NCBI GenBank assembly: GCA_963753345.1
Contig: CAVWBU010000046.1
Coordinates: 1-57,254, forward strand
Length of the DNA: 57,254 nt
Source: an uncultured Fibrobacterota bacterium
Lineage (GTDB): Bacteria > Fibrobacterota > Chitinivibrionia > Chitinivibrionales > FEN-1185
Direction of reading: 5' to 3'
The notes under the pieces are model-generated. The model had not been told where the DNA came from. It saw only the letters and a program-made list of their open reading frames with translations, and ran no database searches. The position numbers and the translations under genes are program-made. Shown here piece by piece: positions 9 to 37,812 of this stretch. Within the stretch, counting starts at the first letter, position 1. Each line of letters opens with the position of its first letter.

Positions 9-174
9 CCGCGCGTTAGGTGGACTGGAGGGTGAGCCAGAGCGAATTACCGCCTGATCCCTAGCCGAAGGCGGTAGGAACAGGTGGTAACGAGGCGAAC
101 AGCCGAGCCCGGAAGGACGACGCCTCGAAGCACCCGAAGGGGTGGAACCGGCCCCGCGAAGCGGGGCAACGCCC
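9..174 (-). repeat. Structured repeat family A, copy 1 (Flavo-1-like candidate ncRNA)
   Basis: Minus strand reads GGGCGTT...CCTAACGCGCGG; highly similar to the copy at 37645-37812; multiple internal hairpins; an extra head fragment lies at 197-210. Confidence 0.85.
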
Positions 175-322
175 AAGTCTTTTCATTCCTGCGACGGCGA
201 GGGGAACGCCAATATCTTTTTATATAATTGGCCCCCCTTTCATAATAATTCGCTCTTTGGAAAGCGGCAAATTATATTCCTACCTGCTGATGCCAAAACC
301 ATAGGAAGCGGGTTGACTCACT

Positions 323-487
323 ATGAAGCTTGAAGAGCAGTTTGACCCGGACGAAATCCTGCGAGATGTGGGAGACGACGCCGCGGATGCCGAAGCTCCC
401 GAACACGTGAGGGAGCTTAATTTCGGCACGCTCCACGACCATAATGCCAATTTTCGGGAAATGGCAGGCGATCTGAATAACGAATAG
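323..487 (+). CDS. Small acidic hypothetical protein (54 aa)
   Basis: ATG323-TAG487, MKLEEQFDPDEILRDVGDD...; below the ORF-track cutoff; AGGAAG upstream. Confidence 0.45.
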   Translation: MKLEEQFDPDEILRDVGDDAADAEAPEHVRELNFGTLHDHNANFREMAGDLNNE

Positions 488-680
488 GGAACCTTCCCGG
501 GTTCCTTTCTCCCGCGCTCATGTATCCTCAAACGCAGTGACGCTCCACCGCCGCAATCCCACCGTCGGTCGTAGATACCATCAAATTTGCGTTTCCTCTC
601 AGGGATACGTAATTTCTCTTGCGTGGTGGAGTGTGCAGACCAAAGGCCGTTGGAACAACGCGCTCGGTTCAATCGTCTAA

Positions 681-888
681 TTGAATAGCACAGCCCGCGC
701 ATTCCCCGCGAGTTCGCTTGCGCGGCCACTCCTGTAGCTTGTAAGCAGGCGTAGTCGTGGTGGCGCGGGGTTAGCGGGCGAATATTTATTATTCTATTTC
801 CTTAGCTATGGAAGACCACGCAGTAGAGGCCGCAGACGTGCTTCGACCGCATGGCCAATCCCCGGCACTTGGGGCGGGGTTCTTCAAT
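681..888 (+). mobile_element. Miniature IS200/IS605-like non-autonomous element (family C), copy 1
   Basis: TTGAAT-AGCACAGCCCGCGCATTCCCCGC...GCGGGGTTAGCGGGCG...ATGGAAGA...GGGGCGGGGTTCTTCAAT; two subterminal hairpins; no ORF. Confidence 0.7.
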
Positions 889-1094
889 GTTCAAAGCGTT
901 GTTTGATGAAAAATCGGCGATTGGGCCTGAAGGTCTCCCGGTGTTGCATTGAAGAATAGATAAGTTGGTTAATGTTGTATTCCTCCAACACCTGCCTCTG
1001 TCAAGGCTGGGGAAGGTCGGCAATATCAAAGAATGTTTCCCCTTAAGCCAATTAAAAGACAGTTTGCCAAAACCACTCCATGGAGGTCCGTTCA

Positions 1095-1961
1095 ATGATC
1101 ACCAATCCACCACCCACCGCTTCTATGACAGGTAAACGAATAATCGTCACAGGCCCAACCTCGGGCTTCGGCAGAGAGATCGCCATGCAGCTTGCCCTGC
1201 TCGGCGCGGAGGTCGTGCTTGCCTGCCGGGACCCTGAATGCGGGGAGCGGGTGGCCGAAGAGATCGCGGCCCGAACCGGAAGGAAGGACTGCGCGGTTGT
1301 GCGCATCGACACCTCCAGCCAAAAGTCCATCCGCGAATTTGCACAACAGTTTTCCAAGAAATATTCCCGCCTCGACGTGCTTGTCAACAATGCCGGCATC
1401 AACCGGTCCAAGCGGCAGACGAGCGTTGACGGAATAGAACTCACCTTCGCCACCAACGTGCTCGGGTACTGGCTGCTCACGCAAGAGCTGCTCGACCTGC
1501 TGAAGGCGAGCGCGCCGGCGCGCATCGTGAACGTGGCGTCCACATACGCGGGCGACCTTGATCTTGCCGACCTCCAGTTCGAGCGCCGGGGCTACGACGC
1601 ACAAAAGGCGTACAAGCAGTCCAAGGCCTGCAACCGGATGCTCACCTGGGCGTTTGCGCGCCGGCTTGACAAAAGCGGCGTAAGCGCCAATGCCATGGCG
1701 CCCGGCCTGGTGGTGAAGACCGGCCTCTATCGCGACATGCGTCCTGCGGTGCGGGTCATCATGCGCGTGCTGGGCCTCTTGTTCGGCCGCAGCGTGGCTC
1801 AAGGGGCCGACACTGCCATCTGGCTGGCGAGCAGCCCGGAAGTGGAGGGCATGAGCGGGAAGTTTTTCGACCAGCGGAAGGAAGAGCCGTGCAGTTTCAG
1901 AAACCGGGACGCCGAAGAGACCCTGTGGCGCATTTGTGAAGGGTTGACAAAATCAAGCTGA
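1095..1961 (+). CDS. SDR family oxidoreductase (retinol dehydrogenase-like)
   Basis: TGPTSGFG, LVNNAG and YKQSK motifs; GGAGGT RBS before ATG1095. Confidence 0.92.
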   Translation: MITNPPPTASMTGKRIIVTGPTSGFGREIAMQLALLGAEVVLACRDPECGERVAEEIAARTGRKDCAVVRIDTSSQKSIREFAQQFSKKYSRLDVLVNNAGINRSKRQTSVDGIELTFATNVLGYWLLTQELLDLLKASAPARIVNVASTYAGDLDLADLQFERRGYDAQKAYKQSKACNRMLTWAFARRLDKSGVSANAMAPGLVVKTGLYRDMRPAVRVIMRVLGLLFGRSVAQGADTAIWLASSPEVEGMSGKFFDQRKEEPCSFRNRDAEETLWRICEGLTKSS

Positions 1962-2013
1962 GAGAAAAAGGGACGGCGGGCGCTGTGCGCGCCATGAGGG
2001 AATTGAGGACATT

Positions 2014-2763: not shown

Positions 2764-2797
2764 ACAATCAGGGGATATTCCCGGGGAGGTTCCGATC

Positions 2798-3628: not shown

Positions 3629-3794
3629 CTGAATAGCACAGCCCGCGCATTCCCCGCGAGTTCGCTTGCGCGGCTACTCCTGTAGTATGTATGCAGGCGT
3701 AGTCGTGGTGGCGCGGGGTTAGCGGGCGAATATTTATTATTCTATTTCCTTAGCTATGGAAGATTCCCCGCCACTTGGGGCGGGGTTCTTCAAT
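3629..3794 (+). mobile_element. Family C miniature element, copy 2
   Basis: Near-identical to copy 1 over about 133 nt; CTGAAT left end, GGTTCTTCAAT right end. Confidence 0.72.
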
Positions 3795-4485: not shown

Positions 4486-4509
4486 TTGACAAGTGGGATA
4501 CTGATATCT

Positions 4510-7497: not shown

Positions 7498-7671
7498 ATG
7501 GCCAGGAAATTGAAAAAAGCGGTTCACAAGAAGGCGAAGAATGCGGTGACCAAAGGTTCCAAGCTTACGTGCAAGGAATGCGGTCTGGAGCTGGTGGTCG
7601 TTGATGACTGCGGTTGCGCGGACCCGTGCGACGTGATGTGCTGCGGGGAGCAGATGGTGGTGTCGTGCTGA
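7498..7671 (+). CDS. Small Cys-rich desulforedoxin-like metal-binding protein (57 aa)
   Basis: CKECG...DDCGCADPCDVMCCGEQM; basic N-terminus; AAAGGGG RBS; terminator downstream. Confidence 0.75.
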   Translation: MARKLKKAVHKKAKNAVTKGSKLTCKECGLELVVVDDCGCADPCDVMCCGEQMVVSC

Positions 7672-7705
7672 AATTTGTTCTTAGTGTATTCGCTGTTTGA
7701 TTTTG

Positions 7706-7736
7706 AAAATGCTCGCACCTTGCGGGCATTTTTTTT
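7706..7736 (+). terminator. Rho-independent terminator
   Basis: AAAATGCTCGCA-CCT-TGCGGGCATTTT plus T run. Confidence 0.75.
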
Positions 7737-7821
7737 ACCAGCTAAATTATTGAGAAGCTAGGGGTCTCTTTGCTCTGCCCGCACAGCGCCTAACATGGAA
7801 CGTGGCAATGGCTGATGCCCA

Positions 7822-7972
7822 GCGTTAGGAACGACTGGAGGTCGCGCTGGAGCGCGATGCCGCCTGACCACGGCCCGCAAGGCCTTCGTGGCAGGCGGCC
7901 CGAGGCCGGAGGCCGAGACCGGAAGGAGGGCCGACCCGAGCCTGAGTCTTGACGAAGGCGAGGGGAACGCCC
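7822..7972 (-). repeat. Family A structured repeat, copy 2
   Basis: Minus strand GGGCGTTCCCCTCG...CCTCCAGTC...CCTAACGC. Confidence 0.82.
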
Positions 7973-8013: not shown

Positions 8014-8958
8014 CTACGCCTTCTTCACCTGCCCCTCCACCTTCGATTTCTGTATCGTGTTCATGGCAGTCGAAACCAGCGCCGCGACATCGGCGAGGTT
8101 GGACGGCAGGATCATGGTGGTGCTCTGTTTTGCGATATTCCCGAACTGCGTAATGAACTGTTCCGCAACCCTGAGCTGCACGGCCTCGAACCCGCCCGCT
8201 TCGTTGATGGATTGCGCGACCTTGCGGATTCCCTCGGCCGTGGCCGCCGCGACTGCCAAAATGGCCGCGGCTTGGCCTTCGGCCTCGTTGATGCGCTGCT
8301 GCTTGGTTGCCTCGGACGCCTTGATCACCTTCTGCTTTTCGCCCTCGGCGTTGTTGATCGCCGCATCGCGCGTTCCCTCGGACTGCAGGATAACCGCGCG
8401 TTTTTCCCGTTCGGCCCGCATCTGTTTTTCCATGGCCGCCAGAACGTCCTGCGGCGGGGTGATGTTCTTGATTTCGTAGCGGAACACCTTGACGCCCCAC
8501 GACTCGCTCGCCTTGTCGAGCTCCGTGACCACGAGCATGTTGATTTGTGAGCGCATCTCGAAGGTGCGGTCAAGCTCGATCTTTCCGATTTCGGAGCGCA
8601 GCGTGGTTTGCGCAAGCTGTGTGATGGCGAACAGCAGGTTCGCAACACCGTAGGATGCACGCTGGGGGTCGACGATCTTGTAGTACAGCACGCCGTCGAC
8701 AGCGACCTGCACGTTGTCCCTGGTGATGCACACCTGTTCGGCGATTTCAAGCGCGGTCTCCTTGAGGCTGTGGCGGTAATGCACCGAGTCGAAGAACGGC
8801 CACAAGAAGTGAAAGCCCGCGTTCTTGACTTCGTGGAAGCGGCCGAGCCGTTCCACCACGTACGCGCTCTGCTGCGGGATGACGATGACGCATCGGGAAA
8901 GCACGATAAGCACGAGCACAACCGCAACGATTGCAACGACGATAATTCCTCCGGACAT
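8014..8958 (-). CDS. SPFH/band 7 (paraslipin, QmcA-like) protein
   Basis: VVERLGRF, ITRDNVQVAVDG, AMEKQMRAEREKRA. Confidence 0.95.
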   Translation of the reverse strand: MSGGIIVVAIVAVVLVLIVLSRCVIVIPQQSAYVVERLGRFHEVKNAGFHFLWPFFDSVHYRHSLKETALEIAEQVCITRDNVQVAVDGVLYYKIVDPQRASYGVANLLFAITQLAQTTLRSEIGKIELDRTFEMRSQINMLVVTELDKASESWGVKVFRYEIKNITPPQDVLAAMEKQMRAEREKRAVILQSEGTRDAAINNAEGEKQKVIKASEATKQQRINEAEGQAAAILAVAAATAEGIRKVAQSINEAGGFEAVQLRVAEQFITQFGNIAKQSTTMILPSNLADVAALVSTAMNTIQKSKVEGQVKKA

Positions 8959-9418: not shown

Positions 9419-9603
9419 TCCAGCGGTTATGTGTCTCGCACAACAACGTATATCTTGCTCTATCGAAAATAGATGGTTGTAGGGGGAAAAGGAATATCAT
9501 CAATCGATAATAAAAACTTGCTGGTGGGAGCATCTGGAAATCAAGAGCAAGTGTTGGGCGTTCCCCCTTCTGCAGAGGCGCATGGTAAAACAGAAGAAGT
9601 CTT

Positions 9604-9743
9604 GGGCGCCCCGCTGCTTCGCAGCGGCGGCCCTCCTTCCAGGCTCGGCCTTCGGCCTCGTTGCCGCTTGTCCCAACCGCCTTCGGCTAGGGATCAAGCG
9701 GCAATGCGCTCCAGCGCACCTTCCAGTCCTGCCTGGCGCGCGG
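9604..9743 (+). repeat. Family A structured repeat, copy 3 (GCGCC/GGCGC variant)
   Basis: GGGCGCCCC...CCTGGCGCGCGG; extra head GGGCGTTCCCC at 9556. Confidence 0.82.
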
Positions 9744-9826
9744 CAGATGAAATCTATTCGGCCAAGTACATCTTTGCGCCAGGCGGAATCCTTGGAAGGA
9801 ACGTGGGTTCTCTCTCACAAGTCCCG

Positions 9827-9854
9827 CTGTCAACTGCCAACTGTCAACTTTTAA
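9827..9854 (+). repeat. Heptamer tandem run (CTGTCAA)n
   Basis: CTGTCAA CTGCCAA CTGTCAA CTTTTAA. Confidence 0.85.
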
Positions 9855-9948
9855 CTCTCTTTCTCGGTGCCCCGCAGGAAGGAAAGTGACAAAGGCAAAC
9901 GACATAATGGAAGGTGCGCGGCACCACTACCAAACCCTTAAGGAACGT

Positions 9949-10020
9949 AGTGACAAAGTTACAAAGTAATTCTTTGTTTCCCACGTTTCAACGCTTCAAC
10001 TTTTCAACGTTTCAACGCTT
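9949..10020 (+). repeat. Octamer tandem runs (GTxACAAA)n and (ACGTTTCA)n
   Basis: GTGACAAA GTTACAAA GTAA; ACGTTTCA ACGCTTCA ACTTTTCA ACGTTTCA. Confidence 0.82.
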
Positions 10021-10034
10021 TGTCTTCTCAACCG

Positions 10035-10189
10035 CTCTCCTTGGGTGCCCCCGTACGGGTGCTTGATTTCTGCCACTGCATCCACTTGGGGTGCACCCAG
10101 GAAGGGGGAGCGCAGGACCGGCGCGTGATATACAGTTACCAAGACAAGGGCGCACCGGGCCGTAGCGAGGGGGAACCTTCCCCCACCAA
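10035..10189 (+). repeat. Structured repeat family B, copy 1
   Basis: CTCTCCTTGGGTGCCCCC...TTGATTTCTGC...CTTGGGGTGC...GGGGGAACCTTCCCCCACCAA. Confidence 0.8.
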
Positions 10190-11969: not shown

Positions 11970-12037
11970 GAACCTCCTGCAGACAAAGCTCTTGGTGGGG
12001 GCACCGCTTCGTGGTTTCCCGAGATAGTAGAAGAGTT

Positions 12038-12206
12038 GGGCGTTTCCCTCCCCCTCACTTCGCTCGGGGTCGGGTCGGTCAGGGTTAGGTCTCCCTCCGG
12101 GCTCGGCTGTTCGCCTCGTTGCCGGACCGCCCCTAGTCGCCTCCGGCGGGGGTTCGGCCGGCAATCCCGCTATGGGCGGGACCACTTCGGTCCACCTAAC
12201 GCGCGG
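12038..12206 (+). repeat. Family A structured repeat, copy 4
   Basis: GGGCGTTTCCC...GGTCCACCTAACGCGCGG. Confidence 0.82.
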
Positions 12207-12286
12207 CAGAGGAAATTTTTTCAGTCAATGTTAATTTTCACGCCAATTGGATTTTTCAGCTAAACCGTCAATGTCTGTCTTTCCAG

Positions 12287-12380
12287 CTGTCAACTGTCAA
12301 CCGCCAACTGTCAACTTTCAACTTCCTTCTCGGTGCCCCCGCAGCCGATAGTAACAAAGTGAGAAAGTCACAAAGTAGAA
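12287..12380 (+). repeat. Heptamer run plus GTxACAAA octamer run
   Basis: CTGTCAA CTGTCAA CCGCCAA CTGTCAA CTTTCAA; TTCTCGGTGCCCCCGCAG; GTAACAAA GTGAGAAA GTCACAAA. Confidence 0.82.
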
Positions 12381-12400
12381 GTAAGCGCATGGTACTACTG

Positions 12401-12518
12401 CTCTCCTTGGGTGCCCCCACACGGGTGTTGATTTCTGCAACTGCATCCACTTGGGGTGCGCCCGGAGGGGGTGACGGAGGACCCAGGGCCGCAGGCAGGG
12501 GGACACTTCCCCCGACAA
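12401..12518 (+). repeat. Family B structured repeat, copy 2
   Basis: CTCTCCTTGGGTGCCCCCACACGGGTGTTGATTTCTGCAACTGCATCCACTTGGGGTGC...GGGGGACACTTCCCCC. Confidence 0.8.
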
Positions 12519-13110: not shown

Positions 13111-13173
13111 GGTATGTCTTTTGCTTCGATTTTCCACTGTACGATCCTGCCGCCAACTGCAAACTGTCAACAG

Positions 13174-13542
13174 TCAACTTGCTTTTATGAAATCCGTCCC
13201 AATATGTCCCGCAGACATTGAAATCGGCGTTACATACGCTATTCCCATCCCAGGAACGTCAAGCCGCGCGGCGCGCACCACCATGTCGAAAATGGCCTGC
13301 GTGGCGGTCTTTTGCGAGACGATAAACACCACTTCCTTCTCCGGCACAATGGCAAGGCCCAGAAGGCCCAGTTTTTCCCTCAGGCCCATGCCCCGCGCAA
13401 AGAAGATCGTGGCGCCGCCTGCGCCGGCCTCAAGCGCGGCCTTTGCCACCTTGTCGGCCTTGCCCCGTTGTACCACGCAGGTGATGAGCTCCAGCGCTTC
13501 CTGTTCCTGCGCGGGCCGGTTGTTCGCATTTGTCACTGTCAT
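13174..13542 (-). CDS. P-II family regulator
   Basis: AGAGGATIFFARGMG, PEKEVV and PGMGIAYVTP motifs. Confidence 0.9.
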   Translation of the reverse strand: MTVTNANNRPAQEQEALELITCVVQRGKADKVAKAALEAGAGGATIFFARGMGLREKLGLLGLAIVPEKEVVFIVSQKTATQAIFDMVVRAARLDVPGMGIAYVTPISMSAGHIGTDFIKAS

Positions 13543-23313: not shown

Positions 23314-23328
23314 CGCGGGAGAAGGAGC

Positions 23329-26717: not shown

Positions 26718-26736
26718 CTGTCCGGGCGCGGGCAAC

Positions 26737-28401
26737 ATGAGCTATTACTATCTGGAAGTGCTCCGGGGTTCCGAAGTCGGCCGGCGCTATTTGCTTGCCG
26801 ACGGCGCCACGAGCGTGGGCAGGAGTTCCCAGAACACCCTCGCGCTCCATTCGGCGGAGAAGAGCGTGTCGGGGCACCATGCCATCATCTACAAGAGCGG
26901 CGACCGGATAAGCCTGCAGGACCTGGAAAGCACCAACGGCACGTTCGTGAATGAGGAGCGCGCAAGCGAGCGCGAGCTTGCCGCGGGCGACGTCGTGGGG
27001 TTCGGCAAGGCCGGCCCGCGGCTCAGGCTCATCGCATCCGACAAGGAGCTTCCCCTCGAACCAGGGAAGGCGCAGATGGCGTCGGCCGAATCGACGAGCA
27101 TCCGCACCGTGGAAGACGAGCTGCAGGCGTTCGGGAACAGGGAGGCGCCCGAGGGCACGGGCAAGGAGGATCTGGAGCTCATCACCAAGGTGCGTCTCAG
27201 GATGCCGAAAGAGGGAGCCGGGTTTTCTGGCCCTTCCGCGACCATGGACATGGAAAAGAAGATCCTCGAAAACAAGCTCGGCGAAAGCGACATGCGCCAC
27301 CTGATGCGCGACGGTAAACGGCTTGACAGGATCATCGACCGCGGCAACATCGGCACCGCGCAGGCGTCGATGCTCCGCACTGCGCACGGCGCGCACGCGC
27401 AGTCGAACAAACGGTGGCTATTAATTCTGGGGTGCGTAGTGGCGGTGTCGGCCGTGGCGGTTTCCTTTTTCGCTATTCGGGCGTACCAGTACAAGGCGCT
27501 TTTGTCAAGGGGCATGTCGCTCCGAGCCACGCTGGATTCGTACGAGACGCAGATCGCCCAGGCGAACAAAGACCCGGACGCCAACAAGCGCAGGCTCGAC
27601 TCGCTCATCGGCGAGCTCGACAAGGCAAAGAAACAGCTCGCGGCCGTCAAGCAGGACGTGCGCCAGAACGACTACGGCAGGTTTTATTCCGACCCGCTCG
27701 AAAAGACGATCGACCAGGTGCTCATGCGCTTCGGCGAGACCGACTACCACATCCCGCAGGAGATGGTCTCGCGCGTCAAGTACCACGTCTCGGTGTACTC
27801 GGGCGTTCTGCACCAGACCATCGCCAAGTACGTGGGCCGCAAGGAGCGGTATTTCCCCATGATCCGGCGCGTGTTCCGCGACAACAAGCTGCCCGAAGAC
27901 CTTGCCTACGTGTCGATGCTCGAAAGCGGGTTCAACCCGCGCGCGCTGTCACCGGTCGGGGCGCGGGGCATGTGGCAGTTTATGCCCGAAACCGGAAGAC
28001 GCTACGGCCTGCGGGTCGACGCGTCGGTCGACGAGCGGTGCGATCCGGAAAAGGCCACGCTGGCCGCCGCAAAGTACTTCAAGGAGCTCATCGCCATTTT
28101 CGGCGGCCAGAGCTCGGTGATGCTCGCCATGGCGGCCTACAACGCGGGTGAAGGCAGGGTCGTGGGCGCGCTCCGGAAAATCGACAACCCCATGCGCAAC
28201 CGCGATTTCTGGTACATTTACAGAATGGGATACCTTGCCGAGGAAACCAACGAATACATACCGCGCGTGATGGCCCTGCTCATCATCTCCGAACATCCGG
28301 ACCAGTACGGATTTTCGCAGGTTCCCGCAGCTCCCGCAGGACAGGCTGACGCGGAGAATGATTTTATTCCGCTGGATAATATAAAAAATACGGGCAAGTA
28401 G
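26737..28401 (+). CDS. FHA domain - TM - coiled coil - lytic transglycosylase (MltD-like SLT) protein
   Basis: VGRS...SVSGHHA...LQDLESTNGTFVN (FHA); TM WLLILGCVVAV; LESGFNP, GMWQFMP, AAYNAGEG (SLT). Confidence 0.92.
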   Translation: MSYYYLEVLRGSEVGRRYLLADGATSVGRSSQNTLALHSAEKSVSGHHAIIYKSGDRISLQDLESTNGTFVNEERASERELAAGDVVGFGKAGPRLRLIASDKELPLEPGKAQMASAESTSIRTVEDELQAFGNREAPEGTGKEDLELITKVRLRMPKEGAGFSGPSATMDMEKKILENKLGESDMRHLMRDGKRLDRIIDRGNIGTAQASMLRTAHGAHAQSNKRWLLILGCVVAVSAVAVSFFAIRAYQYKALLSRGMSLRATLDSYETQIAQANKDPDANKRRLDSLIGELDKAKKQLAAVKQDVRQNDYGRFYSDPLEKTIDQVLMRFGETDYHIPQEMVSRVKYHVSVYSGVLHQTIAKYVGRKERYFPMIRRVFRDNKLPEDLAYVSMLESGFNPRALSPVGARGMWQFMPETGRRYGLRVDASVDERCDPEKATLAAAKYFKELIAIFGGQSSVMLAMAAYNAGEGRVVGALRKIDNPMRNRDFWYIYRMGYLAEETNEYIPRVMALLIISEHPDQYGFSQVPAAPAGQADAENDFIPLDNIKNTGK

Positions 28402-28426
28402 ACGAATTCTCAAGATATAAATATTT

Positions 28427-28587
28427 TTGGTGGGGGAAGGCTCCCCCTCGCTTCGGCCCGGCCGCGCTACTTCGCAAACCAACACCTCTGAGACGCGCGT
28501 CCGGTCCAGCGCTACCCCCTCGCGGGTGCACCCCTTGATGGTGTAGTTGCAAGAATCAAACACCTGTGTGGGGGCACCCAAGGAGAG
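28427..28587 (-). repeat. Family B structured repeat, copy 3
   Basis: Reverse complement of the copy 1 architecture: TTGGTGGGGGAAGG...GGGGCACCCAAGGAGAG. Confidence 0.8.
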
Positions 28588-28601
28588 CAGTTTAAAAGAA
28601 A

Positions 28602-28736
28602 AAGTGTTGAAGCGTTGAAAAGTTGGAAACAAAGAATTACTTTGTCACTAAAAGAGAGTTGAACGTTGACGGTTGGCAGTTGACAGCGGGATAAAGAGCA
28701 TAAGATGTCATTGCGAGCGCAGCGAGGGTAACGCCC
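28602..28736 (-). repeat. Octamer and heptamer runs plus family A head fragment
   Basis: GTTGAAGCGTTGAAAAGTTGG; TTACTTTGTCAC; GTTGACGGTTGGCAGTTGACAG; GAGGGTAACGCCC. Confidence 0.75.
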
Positions 28737-28769
28737 AAATTCTTCGTGTTTATTTTTTATTGAGGAAAG

Positions 28770-29627
28770 TTATACCGAAACCGCCTGCGGTTCCTGCTTC
28801 CTGAAAAACCTTATCCCCTGCTCCACCAGATGCATGTCGACGCAGGTGTTGAAGCACGGGCCGTTGGGCCTGTCGTTGATGACGCCGTACACCGGAATAG
28901 GATGCACGTCCTGGATGCCGAAGGTGAGGTCGCGCTCGCAGGCAACGGCAACGATGCCGTCGGGACGGAACGAGGCCACCTTCCGGCGCGCGAGCGTGCC
29001 GCCGTTCACCACTTCCACGTTAAGTCCGAACCGCTCTCCCATGTCAACGAGGCTTCCCACCGGGCAACGCCCGCACCGGGCGCAGTTGCTCACGCTCGAG
29101 GTGAGCTTCCTGTTGCAGATGTCGATCTGCAGGCAGTGGGGGAGCAAAATGAGGATGCGGTCGCCGCGGATGCGCTTGCGCTGCGCCTTGGTGAGCGCGT
29201 TGTTCACCTTGATGAACGAGGCGCGCAGCTTTGCGCGGTCCACGCGCAACAGCTGGCTCAGCGTGGCAGCGATGGGGAAGAGGAATTTTACGGTCACCGA
29301 CTGCTTGCCGTGGGGGTAGAGAAGGTCCCATCCGGTGAGGGCGGTGACCGTGATGAGCGTGAGGCCAGCCGCCACCACGAGAACAACCGTGAGCAAGAGA
29401 ACAATGGCGGCACGGTCGGCCCATAGGCCGATCACCGCGAGCCGCGGATGCACCAGATAGTATAAGAGGAAGGCGCCGCCCACGAAAATGAAGAGGCTGG
29501 CCCAGCAGAACGCAAGGAATGTCGCTTTTGTCCATGCGCTGCGCCACGCAGACTGCACCTTCGCGCCCGCGCCGACGGCCGCGTTCCGCAGAATTCCCGC
29601 TGCCGGTCGTGAATCCATAGGCAACAA
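28770..29627 (-). CDS. DUF116 family membrane protein
   Basis: LLPHCLQ, CARCGRC, GGTLAR, VAVACERDL, GPCFNT. Confidence 0.88.
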   Translation of the reverse strand: MLPMDSRPAAGILRNAAVGAGAKVQSAWRSAWTKATFLAFCWASLFIFVGGAFLLYYLVHPRLAVIGLWADRAAIVLLLTVVLVVAAGLTLITVTALTGWDLLYPHGKQSVTVKFLFPIAATLSQLLRVDRAKLRASFIKVNNALTKAQRKRIRGDRILILLPHCLQIDICNRKLTSSVSNCARCGRCPVGSLVDMGERFGLNVEVVNGGTLARRKVASFRPDGIVAVACERDLTFGIQDVHPIPVYGVINDRPNGPCFNTCVDMHLVEQGIRFFRKQEPQAVSV

Positions 29628-29648
29628 CGTGTGGAGGTTCGAGAAACG

Positions 29649-29876
29649 CTAACCGACGTTTTCCACGGTTTTCACTTCAGGAACGTTCGCCCTGAGCATG
29701 CGCTCCACGCCCATTTTGAGCGTCATCGCAGCGCCGGGACAGCCGTGGCATGCGCCATGGAGCTTCACCTTGACGACCCCGTCTTCGCCCACATCGACGA
29801 GCTCGATGTCACCGCCGTCGGCCTGAAGGTTGGGACGGATCTGGTCGATAACCTTCTGGACTTTTTCCTTTATCAT
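29649..29876 (-). CDS. NifU-like (Nfu) Fe-S scaffold protein
   Basis: IRPNLQADGGDIELV...GACHGCP...TLKMGVE. Confidence 0.95.
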   Translation of the reverse strand: MIKEKVQKVIDQIRPNLQADGGDIELVDVGEDGVVKVKLHGACHGCPGAAMTLKMGVERMLRANVPEVKTVENVG

Positions 29877-30025
29877 CGCCGCTCCTTGTGAATATTCCTG
29901 GACTAAAGTTGTTAGTAAGTATTAACGTTTACTTCGGGTGGAAATTTTGGGTGATTACGGATTTTTACGACCCTAATATACTTGATATCGTGGGTATGGC
30001 TAATACCAGTCAATTAGAAAGAGTA

Positions 30026-30199
30026 GGGCGTTCCCCTCGCTGCGCTCGGGTCGGCCGTCCTTCCGGTCCACCCCTTCGGGTGCTTCCAAGGGTCGTCGGC
30101 CTTTGGCCTCGGGCTGCCCGTCCCTACCGCCTTCGGCGAGGGATCGGGCAGCATCCCGCCCTAAGCGGGACCATTTTTCCAGTCCTGCCTAACGCGCGG
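30026..30199 (+). repeat. Family A structured repeat, copy 5
   Basis: GGGCGTTCCCCTCG...CCACCCCTTCGGGTG...CCAGTCCTGCCTAACGCGCGG. Confidence 0.85.
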
Positions 30200-30344
30200 C
30201 AGTGAGATAGATGCCGCTCTTGAAATGATCCTGTGAAATTTAAGGCTCCCTTGATCTGGTTTTTTTCATCGCCGCGAAGCGGCATACCTATGCGGTTGCG
30301 TTGCGAAGGGGCGACGGCTCGCGAGCGTCAAGCGAGCGACCTTG

Positions 30345-30446
30345 CCGCGCCCCTTTGCTGGAGGGGGTGTGCCCCGAGACCCCGCAGTCCCGCGGGACGA
30401 GGAGGCTTGGGGCCGGGGGGAAACGCGAAGCGGTGCCCCCACCAGC
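30345..30446 (+). repeat. Family B-related hairpin module
   Basis: Ends GGGAAACGCGAAGCGGTGCCCCCACCA, close to the reverse complement of 11991-12020. Confidence 0.55.
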
Positions 30447-30607
30447 ATTCTCTATGTAATTCTTTATGGAAAATCAAAATCACCATCGTATACTTAAGAC
30501 AATAAGGCATATGAATCGATTGACTATCATTCATATTTGTCTTATTTTGTTCTTCAATTTTAACGCAGAAAAGCCCTTCGTTTAACCATGGAAGGAACTG
30601 TTTCGCC

Positions 30608-31909
30608 GTGCAAATGGACAGCCAGGCCCAAGAACTCGATGAGGTGATATCCGCGGCAAATCCGCACGTGTTCGGCATGCTGTCCGAAAGGGGAAAGCGC
30701 ATTTTCTTCCCCAAGCGCGGGATACTCGCGCAGACTGCGGAGGCGTCGGGCAGGGCCATCAACGCCACCATCGGCACGGCGCTCGAGGACAACGGCAACC
30801 CCATGTGCCTCGAGTCCCTGTGGAAGCAGCTCAACCTTCAGAAGAAGAACATCTTCTCTTATGCGCCGAGCTTCGGCAGGCCCGAAATCCGAGCGGCGTG
30901 GAAGGACATGATGTTCAAGAAGAACCCGTCGCTTTCAGGCGTGGCAATAAGCCTTCCCATAGTCACGAGTGCGCTTACCCACGGACTCTCCATGGCAGGG
31001 TATCTGTTTGTAAACGAGGACGACGCCCTTGTCCTGCCCGACCTGTACTGGGAAAATTACGATCTGATCTTCACGCATGCGTACGGCGCCTCGATTGCGG
31101 CCTATCCCACGTTCTCGGGCAACGGCTACAACGTGGACGGGATGGCCAACCGGATTTCGGGCCTGCCCCGTGGAAAGAAGATCGTGCTGCTCAATTTTCC
31201 CAACAATCCCACGGGCTACACGGTCACCCGTGCAGAAGCGGTTGCGATCCGCGACACGCTCGTTGCCGCCGCAAACGCGGGCGACGACATCGTCGTCTTC
31301 ATCGACGACGCGTATTTCGGCCTCGTGTTCGAAGACGGCATTCTCACCGAGTCGCTTTTCGGCCTGCTCGCGTCCGCGCATGAACGGATCCTGTGCGTCA
31401 AGTTCGACGGCCCCACCAAGGAGGACTACGTGTGGGGCTTTCGGGTCGGCTTCGTGACGTTCGGGGTCAAAAACGGCAGCCCGCAATTGTACGCTGCGCT
31501 CGAGGCAAAGCTAGCGGGCGCCATTCGCGGAAGCATTTCCAATGCGTCGAACATCAGTCAGTCGCTGCTGCTCAACGCCTATGCGGCGGGCTCCTACGAC
31601 GCGGAGAAGCGCGAAAAGTACGAGGTGCTCAAGCGGAGGTACGCAAGAATCCGAACGATCTTCGCGGCGCACCCGGAATACGCCGGCGTTTTTACGCCGC
31701 TTCCCTTCAACTCCGGGTACTTTATGTGCGTCAGAATGGTTTCGGGCGACGCCGAACCGGTGCGCCAGAAGCTTCTTTCCGGATTCGACTCCGGCATCAT
31801 CGCGTTCGGCGACGTCATCCGCGTCGCATTTTCCTCCACGCCGTACGATTCGCTGGAAAAACTTTTTGACAATATCTACCGCGCCGGCCTTGCCGCGCGC
31901 AAGGGATAG
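30608..31909 (+). CDS. PLP-dependent aminotransferase class I/II
   Basis: NFPNNPTGY, DDAYFG, DGPTKEDYVWGFRVG. Confidence 0.93.
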   Translation: MQMDSQAQELDEVISAANPHVFGMLSERGKRIFFPKRGILAQTAEASGRAINATIGTALEDNGNPMCLESLWKQLNLQKKNIFSYAPSFGRPEIRAAWKDMMFKKNPSLSGVAISLPIVTSALTHGLSMAGYLFVNEDDALVLPDLYWENYDLIFTHAYGASIAAYPTFSGNGYNVDGMANRISGLPRGKKIVLLNFPNNPTGYTVTRAEAVAIRDTLVAAANAGDDIVVFIDDAYFGLVFEDGILTESLFGLLASAHERILCVKFDGPTKEDYVWGFRVGFVTFGVKNGSPQLYAALEAKLAGAIRGSISNASNISQSLLLNAYAAGSYDAEKREKYEVLKRRYARIRTIFAAHPEYAGVFTPLPFNSGYFMCVRMVSGDAEPVRQKLLSGFDSGIIAFGDVIRVAFSSTPYDSLEKLFDNIYRAGLAARKG

Positions 31910-31920
31910 CGCCCTTTCCC

Positions 31921-32604
31921 ATGACCACCATGTCCTCATCGCCGGTCCGCGGCATCATCTTCGACCTCGACGGCACGCTCTACGCGCTCCGGTGGAACCT
32001 CAAGCCGCTTCTCTTTGCAAAGCTCCTGCCCAAGGGCATGCGTCTGCTGCGCTTCCTTGAGACCCGCGGGACCTGCGCAGGCGCCGATTTCGGGTCGCGT
32101 GAGCGGCTGCTCGGCGCCGTATGCGCGGCGTATGCCGGACGGTATAAAACCGCCGCGGACGAGACCCGGCGCTGGATCGACACGCGGTTTTATCCCTCGT
32201 TCGTCTGGGTCATGCGGTTTTTCCGGCATTCTCGGCCCGGGATTGAAAAGCTGCTTTCCTCGCTGCGCCTGCGCGGCGTGCGCCTCGCCGTGCTGTCCGA
32301 CTATGCAAAGGTGGCCGAGCGCCTGGAACGGCTCCGTATTCCGGCCTCGCTGTTCGATGTCCTTGCTTCGTGCGAAGATGCGGGCGCGCTCAAACCCCAT
32401 ACGCGGCCCTTCCTGGAGGTTGCGCGGAAATTGGGAATACCGCCCAACGAAATGCTGGTGGTGGGCGACCGTGTCGAGACCGACGGGCTCGGCGCCAACG
32501 CCGCTGGCATGCGCTTCCTGCATGTGACCGACGGCTGGGCGAGGCAGGAGGGCGCGGTAAGGTGGGAGGAAGCGAAGAAGGTGATTGGAGCGCTGGAAGG
32601 GTGA
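31921..32604 (+). CDS. HAD family hydrolase
   Basis: FDLDGTL, KP and VGDRVETDG motifs. Confidence 0.9.
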   Translation: MTTMSSSPVRGIIFDLDGTLYALRWNLKPLLFAKLLPKGMRLLRFLETRGTCAGADFGSRERLLGAVCAAYAGRYKTAADETRRWIDTRFYPSFVWVMRFFRHSRPGIEKLLSSLRLRGVRLAVLSDYAKVAERLERLRIPASLFDVLASCEDAGALKPHTRPFLEVARKLGIPPNEMLVVGDRVETDGLGANAAGMRFLHVTDGWARQEGAVRWEEAKKVIGALEG

Positions 32605-32673
32605 GGGGTTAAAATTAGAAAAGCGCATTTTTTGGGGGAAGAACAGCCTGTCTCAAAACTCAAGAGAAGATTT

Positions 32674-32809
32674 GGGCGCCCCGCCGAAGACGGCGGCGGC
32701 CGTCCTTCCGGTCTCGGCCTACGGCCTCGGGCTGCCTGCCACGAGGGCCCTGCGGGCCGTGGTCAGGCAGCACCGCGCTCCAGCGCGGCCTCCAGTCCTG
32801 CCTGGCGCG
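32674..32809 (+). repeat. Family A structured repeat, copy 6 (GCGCC/GGCGC variant)
   Basis: GGGCGCCCC...CCTCCAGTCCTGCCTGGCGCG; an opposite-strand tail fragment lies at 32842-32861. Confidence 0.82.
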
Positions 32810-32867
32810 AAGAGAAATAATTGACTGAATAGAAAACCTCTGCGCGCGTTAGGTGGACCGGCGAGAA

Positions 32868-34037
32868 TCACTTTTCAAGTGCGATTTTTCTGAGCGCCCC
32901 GAGCACCCTGGCCCGGATAATTGTTGCAGCAAACTCGGCGGTCGCGGCGGCGCAGCACGAATTCCTCATAGCTTCGTAATTGTCAACAACTTCGAGGAAC
33001 CCGCGGAAGAGGTCGTCCGCGTCTTCGCTTTCCACAATCACGCCGGCGCGGTACTTCTTGAGAAAATCGCCCACGGTCGAATCGCGCGGGCCGTGGTAGA
33101 CAAACGGCAGTCCGAACCCAGCGTAGGTGATGATCTTGGTCGGGAGCGACGACGCCGCGAATTTCCTGCCCAGCGGCGTGAGGGGGTCGCAGGCGTAGCC
33201 GATGTGCATGCCGGCAAGGAATTCCTCGAATTCCCGGTCCGGCAGCAGGGCGTGAACCTTGACAAACGGCTCGGCTGCGGAAACCGCCGGGTCGAAACAG
33301 TGGAACTCAACCGGCCGGCCGGTGGCTTTCCGCAGGGCAAACAGGGCGCGCACAAGGTTGCGCGGCCAGGGAGGCGCGCAGTTGCTCGCCAGCCCGCCCA
33401 GGACCACGTTTATGCCTTTGTCAAGTGCGCGGCCGCCGGGGCGGGGAAGGCGGCGGACGCCGCGGGTCACCACCAAGGCGCTCACGCCGTACCGCTTTTC
33501 GTAGGTTGCGCGCATGCGCTCCGAGATGCAGTCGCGCGAAAGCGCGCGCTTGTAGCAGAACGCGAACGCGCTCCGCACGAGCCGGGCCGGAAGGGGATAA
33601 CTGCAGAGCTCCGTGGCGAGCACGGGGTCGTCGTGCACCGACACGTGGACCGGCACTGCGATGCGCTTCATGACCCGGCGGAAAACGAGCACGCTGTTGA
33701 AATCGAGCACCACCCAGCATACCTGCGGAGAAAATGCCGCGATGTCACGCATCACCGCATCCGCGGCGCGGCGTGATTCGGCAACGGTCAGGATGGCCCT
33801 TCGTGTCCTGGCAAATGGCTCTACAAGCGCGCGAATCGCCGCAGGGGGACGGTTGTTCTTTCCGTCAGGAGGCGGCGCTGCGGAGGGCTCCTTGCGCAGT
33901 GAAATCCACAGCAGTTTGTCTTCAGGGTAGCATTCAAGGATGCTCCGGAGTATAACGCCGCCGCCGAAACCGCCCGTTTTGGGGAACCCGGTGACCACGC
34001 ACAGCCGCGGATACGGGCCTGCGTCAGGAGAGTCCAC
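32868..34037 (-). CDS. Putative GT-B glycosyltransferase
   Basis: [29 protein letters not shown]; coupled to the epimerase gene. Confidence 0.72.
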
Positions 34038-35076
34038 GTTGCTTCCAGCCGCGCACGATGTCTTGGAAAATGGCGCTCAGGGACATGGTGATGCCCCACG
34101 ATGGATAGTGGGATTTCATCTTGGACAAATCGGAATAGTAGCAGATATGATCGCCGGCGCGGCTGGTCTCCACGTACTCGCTGCGCATCGGCTTTCCCGT
34201 GATGGCCGAGACAGTGGAAAACGCCTCGAGGATCGAGCACGAATTTGCCTTGCCGCCGCCGAGGTTGTACACTTCGCCGCACCGGGGGCTTTCGGCGAAC
34301 GCGGCAATGAACAGCGCGACGTCGAGTGCATGGATGTTGTCGCGTACCTGTTTCCCCTTGTAACCGAATATCTTGTACACCTTGTTTTCGAGGTTGACTT
34401 TTACGAGATAGCTCAGGAATCCATGCAATTCCACGCCGCTGTGGTTGGGGCCCGTAAGGCAGCCGCCGCGGAGGCAGCAGGTTTTCATGCCGAAATACCT
34501 GCCGTATTCCTGGACCATTACGTCGGCCGCGACCTTTGACGCGCCGAACACCGAGTGCTTCGACTGGTCTATGGAAAACGATTCCGGAATGCCTTCGGCA
34601 AAGGCAGGGTCGGCGTAGTCCCAGCGTGTTTCCAGTTCTTTCATGGGAATGTTGTTGGGCGCGTCGCCGTAGACTTTGTTCGTGGACATATGGACAAACG
34701 ACGCATCGGGTGCAAACCGTCTCGTTGCCTCCAGCATGTTGAGCGTGCCGGCCGCGTTCACGTCGAAATCGTCGAAGGGCCGGGATGCGGCGAGATCGTG
34801 GCTCGGCTGGGCAGCGGCGTGCACCACGAGGCAGGGCAGGACCTCCTTCATCGCGTCGAGAACTGCCTGCCTGTTGCGGATGTCAACGTTGAGGTGCCGG
34901 TAGTTGGGGAACTGGGAGATAAGGCGGTCACGGTTCCAGGTCGTGTCTCCGGCAGGGCCGAAGAAATCGGCCCGCATGTTGTTGTCGATGCCGCACACGC
35001 TGTCGCCGCGACGGGCGAAAAACGCCACAACCTCGCTGCCGATGAGCCCGCCCGAGCCGGTGACAAGGATTTTCAT
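34024..35076 (-). CDS. NAD-dependent epimerase (CDP-paratose 2-epimerase-like)
   Basis: [37 protein letters not shown]. Confidence 0.92.
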
Positions 35077-35158
35077 GGTTGCGTCCCTTGGGAATGAAAA
35101 TAGTTCATTTCGTATTTGAAGGATAAGACGTTCACTAATAAGAATGAAATATGAATAT

Positions 35159-35326
35159 GGGCGTTCCCCTCGCTCCGCTCGGGTCGGTCCACCCCTTCGG
35201 GTGCTTCCAAGGGTCGTCCTTCCGGCTCGGCTTTCGGCCTCGGGCCGCCACGGCCCTATGCCCCACAGGGCCGGGTCCGGGCGGCATCCCGCTTTGGCGG
35301 GACCTCCAGTCCGGCCTAACGCGCGG
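35159..35326 (+). repeat. Family A structured repeat, copy 7
   Basis: GGGCGTTCCCCTCGCTCCGCTCGGGTCGG...CCTCCAGTCCGGCCTAACGCGCGG. Confidence 0.85.
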
Positions 35327-35401
35327 CAGGAGCAATTCATTCAGTCGATTTGTATTTCTTGCGCCTGCCTTTATCTCTTAATTGTCAACTTGCAACTCTC
35401 T

Positions 35402-35576
35402 TTCTCGGTGCCCCCGCACCAGAAGTTTCTTTCTTGCAAATCAACTTCCTTGGGGGCTACCCACGAGGCGGTGTGGGTCCAGACAACCGGCGCGAAAACA
35501 AAAACAGGGGCACTTCATGATGTGCCCCTACGTTGCGCCGGTTGGCTGGACCCCAGGGGGAAACTTCCCCCGCCAA
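35402..35576 (+). repeat. Family B structured repeat, copy 4 (subtype 2)
   Basis: TTCTCGGTGCCCCCGC...TTCTTGCAAATCAACTT...GGGGGAAACTTCCCCCGCCAA; heptamer remnant upstream. Confidence 0.75.
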
Positions 35577-35656
35577 TTAATTCATTCCTCCTGCCTTTAT
35601 ATTTATCATATACACAGTGTATTTTTCCTCCTCCTCTTTCACCGAACGGAACACAC

Positions 35657-36574
35657 ATGTCTGCTGCAATCATTGCCAGTGACCTCACCAAGAAATTCGG
35701 CGGACTCACGGCCGTGAACGGCATTTCGTTTGAGATCGGCGAGGGCGAATGTTTCGCGTTTCTGGGGCCCAACGGCGCGGGAAAAACCACCACGGTGCAG
35801 ATGATCCATTGCGTTTCGCCGGTCACGGCCGGCTCGGTGACCGTGTTCGGCGAGGCCGCGGGACTTGACAACAGGAAAATCAAGGCGTTCACCGGCGTCA
35901 TTCCGCAGGAGATCACGCTCGACTCCGGCCTCACGGTGCACGAAAACCTTTTGGTGTTCGCCCGGTTCTTCGACATCGGGACGCGCGAGGCGACGAAGCG
36001 CGTGGACGAACTGCTGGAGTTCGTGGAGCTTTCGGCAAAGAAGAAGAGCAGGATCGACGAGCTTTCCACGGGCATGAAGCGGAGGCTGCTTGTCGCGCGC
36101 GCATTGCTCAACAGGCCCAGGCTCATCATCGCCGACGAACCCACCACCGGTCTGGACCCGCAGGCGAGGCACCTTATCTGGCAGCGGCTGCGCCTGCTCA
36201 AGAGCAAAGGCACCACGCTCATTCTCACCACCCAGTACATGGAGGAGGCCGAACAGCTCTGCGACCGGCTCGTGGTGATGAACGAGGGCCGCATTCTCAA
36301 GGAAGGCTCGCCGCGCCGGCTGGTTGAGGACGAGATCGGCAGGGAAGTCGTGGAGATACGGGTCGCCAAAGAGGAAGACGGGCGGCTTGTCGCGCTTGCG
36401 GCCGGCTTCAGCCGCGGCCACGAGCGCGCGGGCGATACGCTGTACTTTCACTGCGACAGCGGCCACGAGCTTGTCAAAAGGATAGTGGACCTCGGCCTGC
36501 CCGACGTGCGCAACAGGCCCGCGACGCTCGAAGACGTGTTTCTCAAACTCACCGGCAGGAGCCTTGCGGAATAG
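35657..36574 (+). CDS. ABC transporter ATP-binding protein (NodI-like)
   Basis: GPNGAGKTT, LSTGMKRR, DEPTTGLDPQAR. Confidence 0.93.
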   Translation: MSAAIIASDLTKKFGGLTAVNGISFEIGEGECFAFLGPNGAGKTTTVQMIHCVSPVTAGSVTVFGEAAGLDNRKIKAFTGVIPQEITLDSGLTVHENLLVFARFFDIGTREATKRVDELLEFVELSAKKKSRIDELSTGMKRRLLVARALLNRPRLIIADEPTTGLDPQARHLIWQRLRLLKSKGTTLILTTQYMEEAEQLCDRLVVMNEGRILKEGSPRRLVEDEIGREVVEIRVAKEEDGRLVALAAGFSRGHERAGDTLYFHCDSGHELVKRIVDLGLPDVRNRPATLEDVFLKLTGRSLAE

Positions 36575-36602
36575 GGGACCGTCCCGTGGAAAAGAGCATT
36601 GT

Positions 36603-37370
36603 GTGAACCTTTCGTACAGAATATATTACGTTCTTCTCCGGAACATCATTTCGTACAAGCGGTTCGTGCTCCCCACGTTTCTGGTGAGCCTGGGACAGCC
36701 GCTGTTCTATCTCATCACGTTTGGCGTGGGCATGGGTGCGTACATGGGATACATCGGCGGCAAGCCGTACCTGCAGTTTTTGGTCCCCGGCGTGCTCATC
36801 TCGTCGGTGATGCTGTCGTCGACCTTCGAATGCCTGTACGACACCTTTGTCAAGATGGTGCACGAGCGGCTGTACGATTCCCTCATCGCAACCCCGGTCT
36901 CGGCCGAAGATGTGGTCGCCGGCGATATCGCCTGGGGCGCGCTGCGCGGTCTTCTCTCCGGCGTGCTTATGCTGGTGGTGGCGATGTTCATGGGTGTGCA
37001 CCCGGCCTCGCTCGCGGGCGCGCTCGTGCTCGTGGTCGTGATGGCCTTTGTGGGCGTGCTGTTCAGCTCGCTCGCCATGATCGTGACCTCGTTCGCGCCG
37101 AACTTCGATTTCTTCAACTACTACACCGAGCTTGTCATCACGCCCATGCTGTTCTTTTCCGGCGTGTTTTTCCCGCTCGACAAGTTCCCGCAGTGGCTCA
37201 AGGTTTTCTCCCTCTTCATGCCGCTCACGCACGCGGTCAACATCTCCCGGTCTGCGTTTTCCGGCGAGCCCGTGCCCGGCGCGTGGTGGAGCCTCCTCGT
37301 TTTGCTTGGGCTTGAGATAATTGCTTTTGTCGTGGGTGTCAAGCTGATGAAGAGGCGAGTAGTTTCTTAG
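36603..37370 (+). CDS. ABC-2 permease (NodJ-like)
   Basis: YLQFLVPG, PMLFFSGVFFP, PLTHAV. Confidence 0.92.
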   Translation: MNLSYRIYYVLLRNIISYKRFVLPTFLVSLGQPLFYLITFGVGMGAYMGYIGGKPYLQFLVPGVLISSVMLSSTFECLYDTFVKMVHERLYDSLIATPVSAEDVVAGDIAWGALRGLLSGVLMLVVAMFMGVHPASLAGALVLVVVMAFVGVLFSSLAMIVTSFAPNFDFFNYYTELVITPMLFFSGVFFPLDKFPQWLKVFSLFMPLTHAVNISRSAFSGEPVPGAWWSLLVLLGLEIIAFVVGVKLMKRRVVS

Positions 37371-37393
37371 AGCAAGAATCATAATGGATTTAA

Positions 37394-37523
37394 GGGGGGG
37401 GGTATCCCCCTCGCTCCGGCCTCCTCGGCCTTTGGCCTGCGGTGTCCTTCGCTACCCCCTCGTGGGTGGCCCCCAAGAAAGTTGATTTGCAAGAAAGAAA
37501 CTTCTGTCGCGGGGGCACCAAGA
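37394..37523 (-). repeat. Family B structured repeat, copy 5 (subtype 2)
   Basis: AAGTTGATTTGCAAGAAAGAAACTTCTG...GGGGGCACC, reverse complement of the copy 4 core; heptamers at 37530-37559. Confidence 0.75.
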
Positions 37524-37644
37524 AAAATGGTTGAAAAGTTGACAGTTGGCGGTTGACAGCATGAAGCACATGAAAATGTCCCAATTATCACATGAAAATG
37601 TCACGTGGCGCAAGCATCACAATTTACGGAATGGATTTCCGTTG

Positions 37645-37812
37645 CCGCGCGTTAGGTGGACCGGAGGGTGCGCCAGAGCGCATTGCCGCCTGATCCCTAG
37701 CCGAAGGCGGTTGGGACAGGCGGTAACAAGGCGAACAGCCGAGCCCGGAAGGACGACCCTTGGAAGCACCCGAAGGGGTGGACCGACCCGAGCGAACGCG
37801 AGGGGAACGCCC
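37645..37812 (-). repeat. Family A structured repeat, copy 8
   Basis: Highly similar to 9-174. Confidence 0.85.

Follow-up and report, generated by a model that had tools for sequence, protein, structure and literature searches.

The stretch analysed here, referred to as the window, comprises 57,254 nucleotides of an uncultured Fibrobacterota bacterium (GenBank assembly GCA_963753345.1, contig CAVWBU010000046.1, positions 1 to 57,254). It carries eight full copies of an intergenic repeat, family A, which are members of an abundant, previously uncatalogued multi-hairpin intergenic repeat family of Fibrobacterota genomes. With moderate confidence, we read family A as the structured core of a mosaic repeat of the REP/REPIN/BIME/BOX kind, intergenic, non-coding, and non-autonomous. 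This placing is based on its conserved ends, foldable but otherwise free interior, mosaic modules, stubs, occurrence in both orientations, high copy number, and lack of coding.

Structure and covariation

Family A is 131-256 nt long and was modelled with eight helices. On its better-folding strand (R), the two ends form a 5-bp closing helix (GCGYY/RRCGC) followed by a 3-bp second helix (GGY/RCC). Enclosed by these are P1, a hairpin with four sequence types; P2, which is long and bulged and also has four types; P3, a short hairpin with an invariant tandem G.A/A.G; P4, a tiny hairpin within a purine-rich stretch; an optional extra hairpin; and hypervariable P5, directly before the 3' arm of the closing helix.

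Covariation in these helices is extensive. In an alignment of 52 sequences, 87.4% of 2,032 helix cells are standard pairs, compared with 29-46% when partners are slid by 1-3 columns. Both sides change in 23 of the 41 pairs, and double-change cells number 262 (95.5 +/- 8 in shuffles); the alignment was fitted to the model and the copies form subfamilies, so these cells are non-independent events. None of 500 shuffles reached the observed covariation score. An earlier sequence-only reading of the window had proposed that structure is constrained more than sequence, and this holds: median identity between copies is 59%, yet pairing is kept at the level given above. The closing helix is GCGTT/AACGC in six window copies and GCGCC/GGCGC in copies 3 and 6, as that reading had noted. 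Across 50 copies, its inner pair is UA in 36, CG in 13, and other in one. The 3' arm, which is absent from the pattern used to search for copies, agrees with the 5' arm in 49 of 50. Further variants are one CT/AG copy (locus L035) and one TC/GG wobble copy (L045).

Internal hairpins had also been described as freely swapped, and module typing across copies bears this out. When 51 copies are classed by closing helix, P1, P2, and optional module, 27 different combinations of types appear. In five copies (L005:705-960, L008:508-697, L013:556-719, L039:633-794, and L031:705-867), P5 is expanded to long near-perfect palindromes whose sequences are unrelated and sometimes AT-rich. Either selection for a hairpin or hairpin-templated repair may have produced these.

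Copies and stubs in the window

A repeat finder and an eight-way alignment recovered all eight full copies where they had been placed from the letters alone. Covariance model R1, built from 25 core-length copies with a structure derived by hand, was run with filters off across the full 57,254 bases. It gave exactly these eight as matches, at E 2e-12 to 1.5e-27, and nothing else in the window scored below E 0.1. A 23-nt degenerate pattern of the conserved end matched six times in the window (0.00 expected from 100 shuffles). Mean column identity of the eight aligned copies is 68%, and indels take out whole hairpins.

Copy strands are given as that of R, the reverse complement of the strand on which the repeat was first written; in order they are + + - - - - - +. 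Copy 1 is at 11-174 (+; R1 E 4e-19), and its upstream link, a conserved stretch described below, is cut by the window start. Copy 2 (7820-7972, +; E 5e-18) has neither link nor block B upstream. On the minus strand are copies 3 (9604-9741; E 3e-27), 4 (12038-12204; E 2.5e-18), 5 (30026-30197; E 6e-16), 6 (32674-32810; E 2e-19), and 7 (35159-35324; E 2.6e-15). Copy 8 (37647-37812, +; E 1e-21) is the 3' part of a larger unit. The CC/GG closing helix is carried by copy 3 and by copy 6, which is of minimal length, and the optional hairpin module by copies 5, 7, and 8.

Four fragments that had been reported at 197, 9556, 28713, and 32842 are all present, at 188-213, 9554-9578, 28712-28739, and 32841-32861. 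The first (+) is a 3' stub, consisting of the P5 3' arm and the end motif, downstream of copy 1 in the same orientation. The second is a 3' stub on the minus strand after copy 3. The third ends a plus-strand stretch (28501-28739) in which block B is followed only by the 3' stub of A, the link and about 115 nt of A being missing. The fourth (+) is a 5' stub with the closing-helix 5' arm and a GGACCGG motif; it stands head-to-head with copy 6, 31 nt away, and its region gives a weak R1 match (32844-32899, E 0.17). Outside the window, 3' stubs also stand behind full copies in L011, L016 (two), L022, and L025, and one head-to-head pair of full copies was found among 42 loci (L042:449-584 and 705-841).

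Distribution and divergence

A genome scan with an exact 23-nt end pattern gave at least 48 loci, and the copy numbers are lower bounds. Among the loci listed, 42 come from three Fibrobacterota metagenome-assembled genomes (MAGs), 39 of these from one fragmentary Chitinivibrionales MAG, and R1 finds at least 44 sites in the 42 loci. Six listed loci are from unrelated phyla; R1 matches none of the six, so these are considered chance matches to the pattern. In the fragmentary MAG, several contigs have 2-4 copies within 6-20 kb, which equals the density of the window (about one per 5-7 kb). Several contigs among the loci terminate inside family A copies. Plasmid and phage collections contained nothing matching family A, and a limited search of the literature on repeats in Fibrobacteres found no account of it.

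The copies are highly diverged. Among the 1,326 pairs formed by 52 aligned copies, none is at least 95% identical and three are at least 90% identical. Window copy 3 has its best partner in another genome (L010, 93%). This cross-genome match and the overall divergence indicate that module types predate these genomes and have not been homogenized within a genome.

Loci L013 and L031, from two MAGs, share the arrangement of an M48 peptidase gene, a unit containing family A, and a convergent cytidine deaminase gene. The genes are 80-90% identical, and block B plus link 66-88%. Within A, identity is complete over the first 22 and last 14 nt but falls to 50-58% in the interior, where the P1 and P2 types differ and unlike P5 tips are set on a common P5 base. 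In this single pair, the frame of an orthologous site was kept and its interior was replaced.

Extended unit

The core of the repeat is where the sequence-only reading had placed it, but its extent was underestimated at one boundary. Conservation continues for about 45 nt beyond this boundary in 43 of 50 copies with enough flank, and often for about 300 nt more. The 45-nt extension is an AT-rich link upstream of A on R, conserved in sequence (70-99% column conservation); window copies 2, 5, and 6 are without it. The link of copy 3 (9742-9781, -) is joined to the R-strand 5' end, and those of copies 4, 7, and 8 are at 12205-12247 (-), 35325-35366 (-), and 37606-37646 (+).

Block B, a further 250-300 nt conserved in about half of the copies, contains a G5/C5 hairpin, GGGGGCACC-type motifs, and GTTGACA heptads. 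Whole units of block B, link, and A (about 450-500 nt) are found at window copies 3, 4, 7, and 8, while copies 2, 5, and 6 are A alone. In the copy-8 unit, block B is at 37394-37560 (+), with the G5/C5 hairpin just after the stop of an ABC-2 gene; the others are at 9822-10121 (-), 12284-12514 (-), and 35368-35472 (-). Whole units fold modestly better than shuffles (z -2.1 and -1.2), and because these values are modest, a long-range GGGGGCACC/GGTGCCCCC helix in the whole unit is only a possibility. Read by eye, the TTGACA heptads do not have the spacing of a sigma-70 promoter, nor do block B and the link have that of sigma-54 or Bacteroidetes-type promoters, and these candidates were rejected.

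Arrays of 7-nt repeats (CAACTGT/GTTGACA and variants, 3-7 units) occur at 9824-9872, 12284-12332, 13140-13202, 19848-19910, 28651-28691, 35368-35418, and 37530-37560. Most are within block B. Those at 13140-13202 and 19848-19910 are without family A, the latter lying between nadE and a phosphoglycerate mutase gene.

Additional modules trail some copies. A small hairpin module (GGTG..CACC, then AGAA) follows copy 8 at 37830-37853 (+), where a terminator-like site was called at 37836-37849. Its equivalent follows copy 4 at 11989-12011 (-), and the module is also present in L011, L024, and L039. A different module of about 40 nt is shared 3' of some CC/GG-type copies (window 32630-32673, L045, and L042). 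Orthology of L045 with window copy 6 was considered and dropped, as their common flank is this repeat module, present at L042 too.

Gene context

All eight window copies are intergenic among ordinary chromosomal genes, with neighbours that include Band_7/NfeD, BNR-repeat protein, LepB, NifU-like, aminotransferase, HAD hydrolase, epimerase, and ABC transporter genes. The 3' end of copy 2 faces the 3' end of a Band_7 gene (8014-8958, minus), copy 3 is upstream of NfeD-Band_7 genes, and copy 4 is between convergent lepB and BNR-repeat genes. Copy 5 is 150 nt upstream of a NifU-like gene (29649-29876, minus), and copy 7 is about 60 nt upstream of an epimerase gene start. The copy-8 unit occupies the entire spacer of two convergent genes.

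Flanking genes at the loci were called by codon-usage score and checked with Pfam on 91 flank open reading frames (ORFs); these calls replaced longest-ORF calls, which antisense ORFs make unreliable. Where both flanks were Pfam-verified, 10 sites are tandem and co-oriented with R, four are tandem and anti-oriented (L009, L010, L027, and L042b), and four are convergent. When a codon-score call is allowed on one side, about 14 are co-oriented, seven anti-oriented, nine convergent, and six divergent. There is no orientation rule relative to genes.

Terminator-like sites were scanned in 28400-38100, where 15 were called (12.5 +/- 3.9 in shuffles), one of them inside copy 5 on the strand opposite R. 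No intrinsic terminator (GC-rich stem plus T-run) was found at the ends of A in this region.

A second intergenic family of about 54 nt fills parts of the window that are without family A (835-888, 3741-3794, 43630-43683, and 52158-52211; inverted at 15404-15467). Its terminal GC hairpin (CCCCGCC..GGGGCGGGG), together with the TTCTTCAAT after it, looks like a terminator. Just upstream of two of these copies is a 134-nt direct repeat (682-815 and 3630-3763) that is 97% identical, far more alike than any family A pair; its weak Rfam match to RUF6-5 (E 3.3) is almost certainly due to chance.

Other genes in the window were recorded as well. In the cluster at 21670-28401, the N-terminal part of one ORF weakly matches the type VI sheath small subunit (VipA/TssB); FecR-domain, CHASE2-Ser/Thr kinase, and FHA-SLT transglycosylase genes follow it. 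At 38156-38852 (-), a small HTH_3 gene is beside an ORF with a weak RelE-like match, possibly a toxin-antitoxin pair. A 513-aa ORF at 44317-45858 (-) has no Pfam match and a weak match to the Kustd1514 S-layer glycoprotein, far below the cut-off. Two pentapeptide-repeat genes (2014-2763, +, and 46432-47034, -) are alike at the DNA level and have 15-nt periodicity.

Folding strand and selected form

The sequence-only reading had written the repeat on one strand, and G.A pairs, triloops, and folding energy all identify the reverse complement as the better folder. R is therefore probably the folding strand. Tandem G.A/A.G pairs in a Y-GA-R context account for 171 cells; they are invariant in P3 (50 of 51 copies) and recur in P1 and P5. 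They favour R because the opposite strand would have C.U/U.C clashes at these positions. On R, C-GNA-G was counted 141 times and GCGAAGC 11 times; the opposite strand has 15 and none, respectively, and shuffles give 75 +/- 9 for C-GNA-G. Hairpin tips on R include 57 C-GAA-G, 15 C-GCA-G, and 12 C-GGA-G. R is the more stable strand in 41 of 51 copies with RNA parameters and in 47 of 51 with DNA parameters. The sequence CTNCGG, which occurs 107 times on the opposite strand, was considered as c(UUCG)g tetraloops and rejected, since symmetric stems make it the mirror image of GAA triloops.

GCGNAGC and C-GNA-G hairpins are described as extraordinarily stable as DNA and considerably less so as RNA (PMC13037366; PMC3201870). 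In family A, G.U pairs fill 28 cells and A.C 32, the latter dropping to about 19 once 13 cells in a single shifted P1 column are discounted; unlike in typical RNA, G.U shows no enrichment over A.C. C-GNRA-G was observed 30 times (44 +/- 7 expected). Because of the DNA-stable GNA hairpins and the lack of G.U enrichment, we lean slightly toward single-stranded DNA (ssDNA) rather than RNA as the selected form.

Interpretation

Family A folds, probably on R, into a closed multi-hairpin structure, with the closing and second helices uniting two highly conserved ends around P1-P4, the optional hairpin, and hypervariable P5. The ends and a few unpaired purine-rich stretches are constrained in sequence, and the interior only to fold. 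Whole hairpin modules are exchanged among the copies, probably through recombination or gene conversion for which the conserved ends would serve as homology anchors. The element codes for nothing, sits between ordinary genes either way round, and would be passively carried in their transcripts. The data show the family, its fold, its mosaicism, one replaced interior at an orthologous site, and the absence of a fixed orientation. We infer that the selected form is single-stranded, that a trans-acting factor recognizes the ends, and how copies spread.

Several observations weigh against this interpretation. It does not account for the conserved unpaired GGAGG-like stretches or for the sequence-conserved link. 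Nothing among the 1,326 copy pairs points to recent copying, the flanks of 50 copies show no target-site duplication, and long terminal inverted repeats are absent, only five end bases being complementary. Pfam searches found no transposase, RAYT, TnpB, recombinase, integrase, or HUH enzyme in 81 of the 186 window ORFs of at least 100 aa, and no mobility genes in 13 re-scanned window ORFs that had no match or in the 91 ORFs flanking the loci. Searching with an exact pattern biases the set of loci toward well-kept copies, and the orthologous comparison is of one pair. In the R1 scan, all eight window copies retain the fold and none is decayed, which suggests selection at each locus over a purely selfish element. 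The sense-strand lean of tandem sites and the position of some copies in mRNA leaders also count on this side.

These last observations bear most directly on the main rival explanation, which is possible but less likely: a transcript-borne RNA element in a 5' leader, intercistronic spacer, or 3' untranslated region that stabilizes, processes, or insulates the transcript and benefits neighbouring genes. In at least six Pfam-verified loci (L047, L008, L023, L040, L046, and L032), the 3' end of A is 10-55 nt before a co-oriented start codon, so R must be in the mRNA leader there, and the same six loci imply that A is not an efficient terminator. At copies 4 and 8 and at L013, units start 12-28 nt past a co-oriented upstream stop. 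Tandem sites lean toward the sense strand (10:4 when Pfam-verified, about 14:7 with codon scores), and the fold is intact in all eight window copies despite about 60% identity. Tandem G.A pairs are common RNA motifs too. However, four of the 14 verified tandem contexts are antisense, and the 10:4 ratio is not significantly different from even. An RNA role also fits poorly with the absence of a G.U excess over A.C, with hairpin tips that are GNA triloops instead of GNRA or UNCG tetraloops (C-GNRA-G being below expectation), and with the absence of any A end among the sites called in the terminator scan.

The ends of A could be sites for an ssDNA-specific enzyme (HUH-type or attC-integrase-like) that recognizes the strand in its folded state and replaces the interior hairpin set as a cassette. 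We think this unlikely, although it would explain both the identical frame with an exchanged interior and the DNA-stable tips. If true, family A would be a chromosome-wide attC-like recombination substrate outside integrons.

Each copy might also be a small-RNA gene, in which the link is the promoter, A gives an RNA of about 140-170 nt, and the closing helix with a pyrimidine-rich tail is the terminator. The link would suit this role, as it is conserved in sequence, unstructured, and at fixed distance and orientation in 43 of 50 copies; its consensus suggests a TAGATT-like hexamer some 9 nt ahead of where conserved A sequence begins, and the 3' flank is T/C-rich in most copies. On the other hand, no sigma-70-like site was called at the links of copies 7 and 8, copies 2, 5, and 6 have no link, and the T-run, a weak one, is set 4-5 nt away from the helix. 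At about one copy per 5-7 kb, such genes would also number in the hundreds, and genes 10-30 nt downstream would lose any promoter. We consider small-RNA genes quite improbable.

Still less probable is a classical miniature inverted-repeat transposable element (MITE) or insertion sequence end, moved by a DDE transposase that recognizes terminal inverted repeats. Dispersed intergenic copies in both orientations, truncated stubs, and ends complementary over 5 bp are what such elements would show. However, 5 bp is short of the criterion of at least 10 bp, the flanks of the 50 copies are without target-site duplications, and no transposase was found in the window ORFs scanned or in flank ORFs. Divergence is far beyond that of an active MITE family, and the covarying interior helices are unneeded by a DDE-type MITE.

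Searches with cmscan of the whole window against all 4,227 Rfam 15 families (including HEARO, group II intron, ROOL, and GOLLD) gave no match at gathering thresholds. At E<=5, positions 1-38500 gave only Trp_leader (7652-7735) and RUF6-5 (3640-3753), which are unrelated, weak, and off the copies. Membership in the Flavo-1 RNA motif family, suggested earlier from a resemblance of the ends, can be set aside almost entirely, as no Rfam 15 model matches any copy at either threshold and nothing is demonstrated in common beyond both being non-coding structured motifs from the Fibrobacteres-Chlorobi-Bacteroidetes (FCB) group.

If the description of family A as a mosaic intergenic repeat holds, Chitinivibrionales-type Fibrobacterota carry one copy per 5-7 kb, which could amount to several percent of the genome. 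Family A breaks MAG assemblies, and an entry in RNA and repeat libraries would prevent its rediscovery as a candidate riboswitch or small RNA. With its conserved ends, its interior free in sequence but able to fold, and its many compensatory changes, it is a clear-cut natural example, useful for studying how hairpin repeats are maintained and whether ssDNA or RNA is the selected form.

Comparison with known families

DNA mini-hairpins of the GCGNAGC and C-GNA-G type are found in ssDNA phage origins, ssiA, and phage N4 promoters (PMC13037366), and the same loop and closing pair dominate the hairpin tips of family A. The mini-hairpins are single functional hairpins at priming or promoter sites, whereas in family A they are the tips of a larger repeated fold without a known enzyme.

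In integron attC sites, short conserved end boxes pair and close a variable structure that is recognized as a folded single strand. Family A is similar in that paired short conserved ends close a structure of variable length and sequence. It differs in that its boxes are reversed, with GTT in the 5' arm and AAC in the 3' arm on either strand. An identity as integron attC sites was rejected: the ends are GCGTT...AACGC and not RYYYAAC/GTTRRRY, the copies point both ways among housekeeping genes instead of forming a co-oriented cassette array beside intI, and the ORFs scanned include no integrase.

REPINs combine conserved ends with a variable spacer able to form a hairpin in ssDNA or mRNA, and they often show compensatory changes (PMC3116915). 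Family A resembles REP and REPIN sequences in being high-copy and extragenic, with conserved ends, a foldable interior, compensatory changes, singlets, stubs, and inverted pairs (PMC3116915; PMC8266576). The compensatory changes are those reported above (23 of 41 pairs; 262 cells against 95.5 +/- 8). The short palindrome or inverted doublet is not seen in family A, which has 131-256 nt with a closing helix and five hairpins, in contrast to the 20-40 nt palindrome of REP or its simple doublet hairpin. Family A copies are mostly singlets, with one full head-to-head pair (L042) and one partial pair (copy 6 with the 32841 stub). They are also much more diverged, and the ORFs scanned include no gene for a RAYT (TnpA-REP, of the Y1/HUH type), the transposase that mobilizes REP and REPIN elements and whose gene is flanked by them. 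On these features, family A is not itself a member of the REP and REPIN families.

Enterobacterial BIMEs and pneumococcal BOX elements are mosaic, modular intergenic repeats with interchangeable hairpin modules, and they are co-transcribed with neighbouring genes. Family A likewise has interchangeable modules in varying combinations, is intergenic, and is present in high copy number. This likeness is one of kind. BIME and BOX modules form a linear string, whereas those of family A are held inside one closed fold with matched ends.

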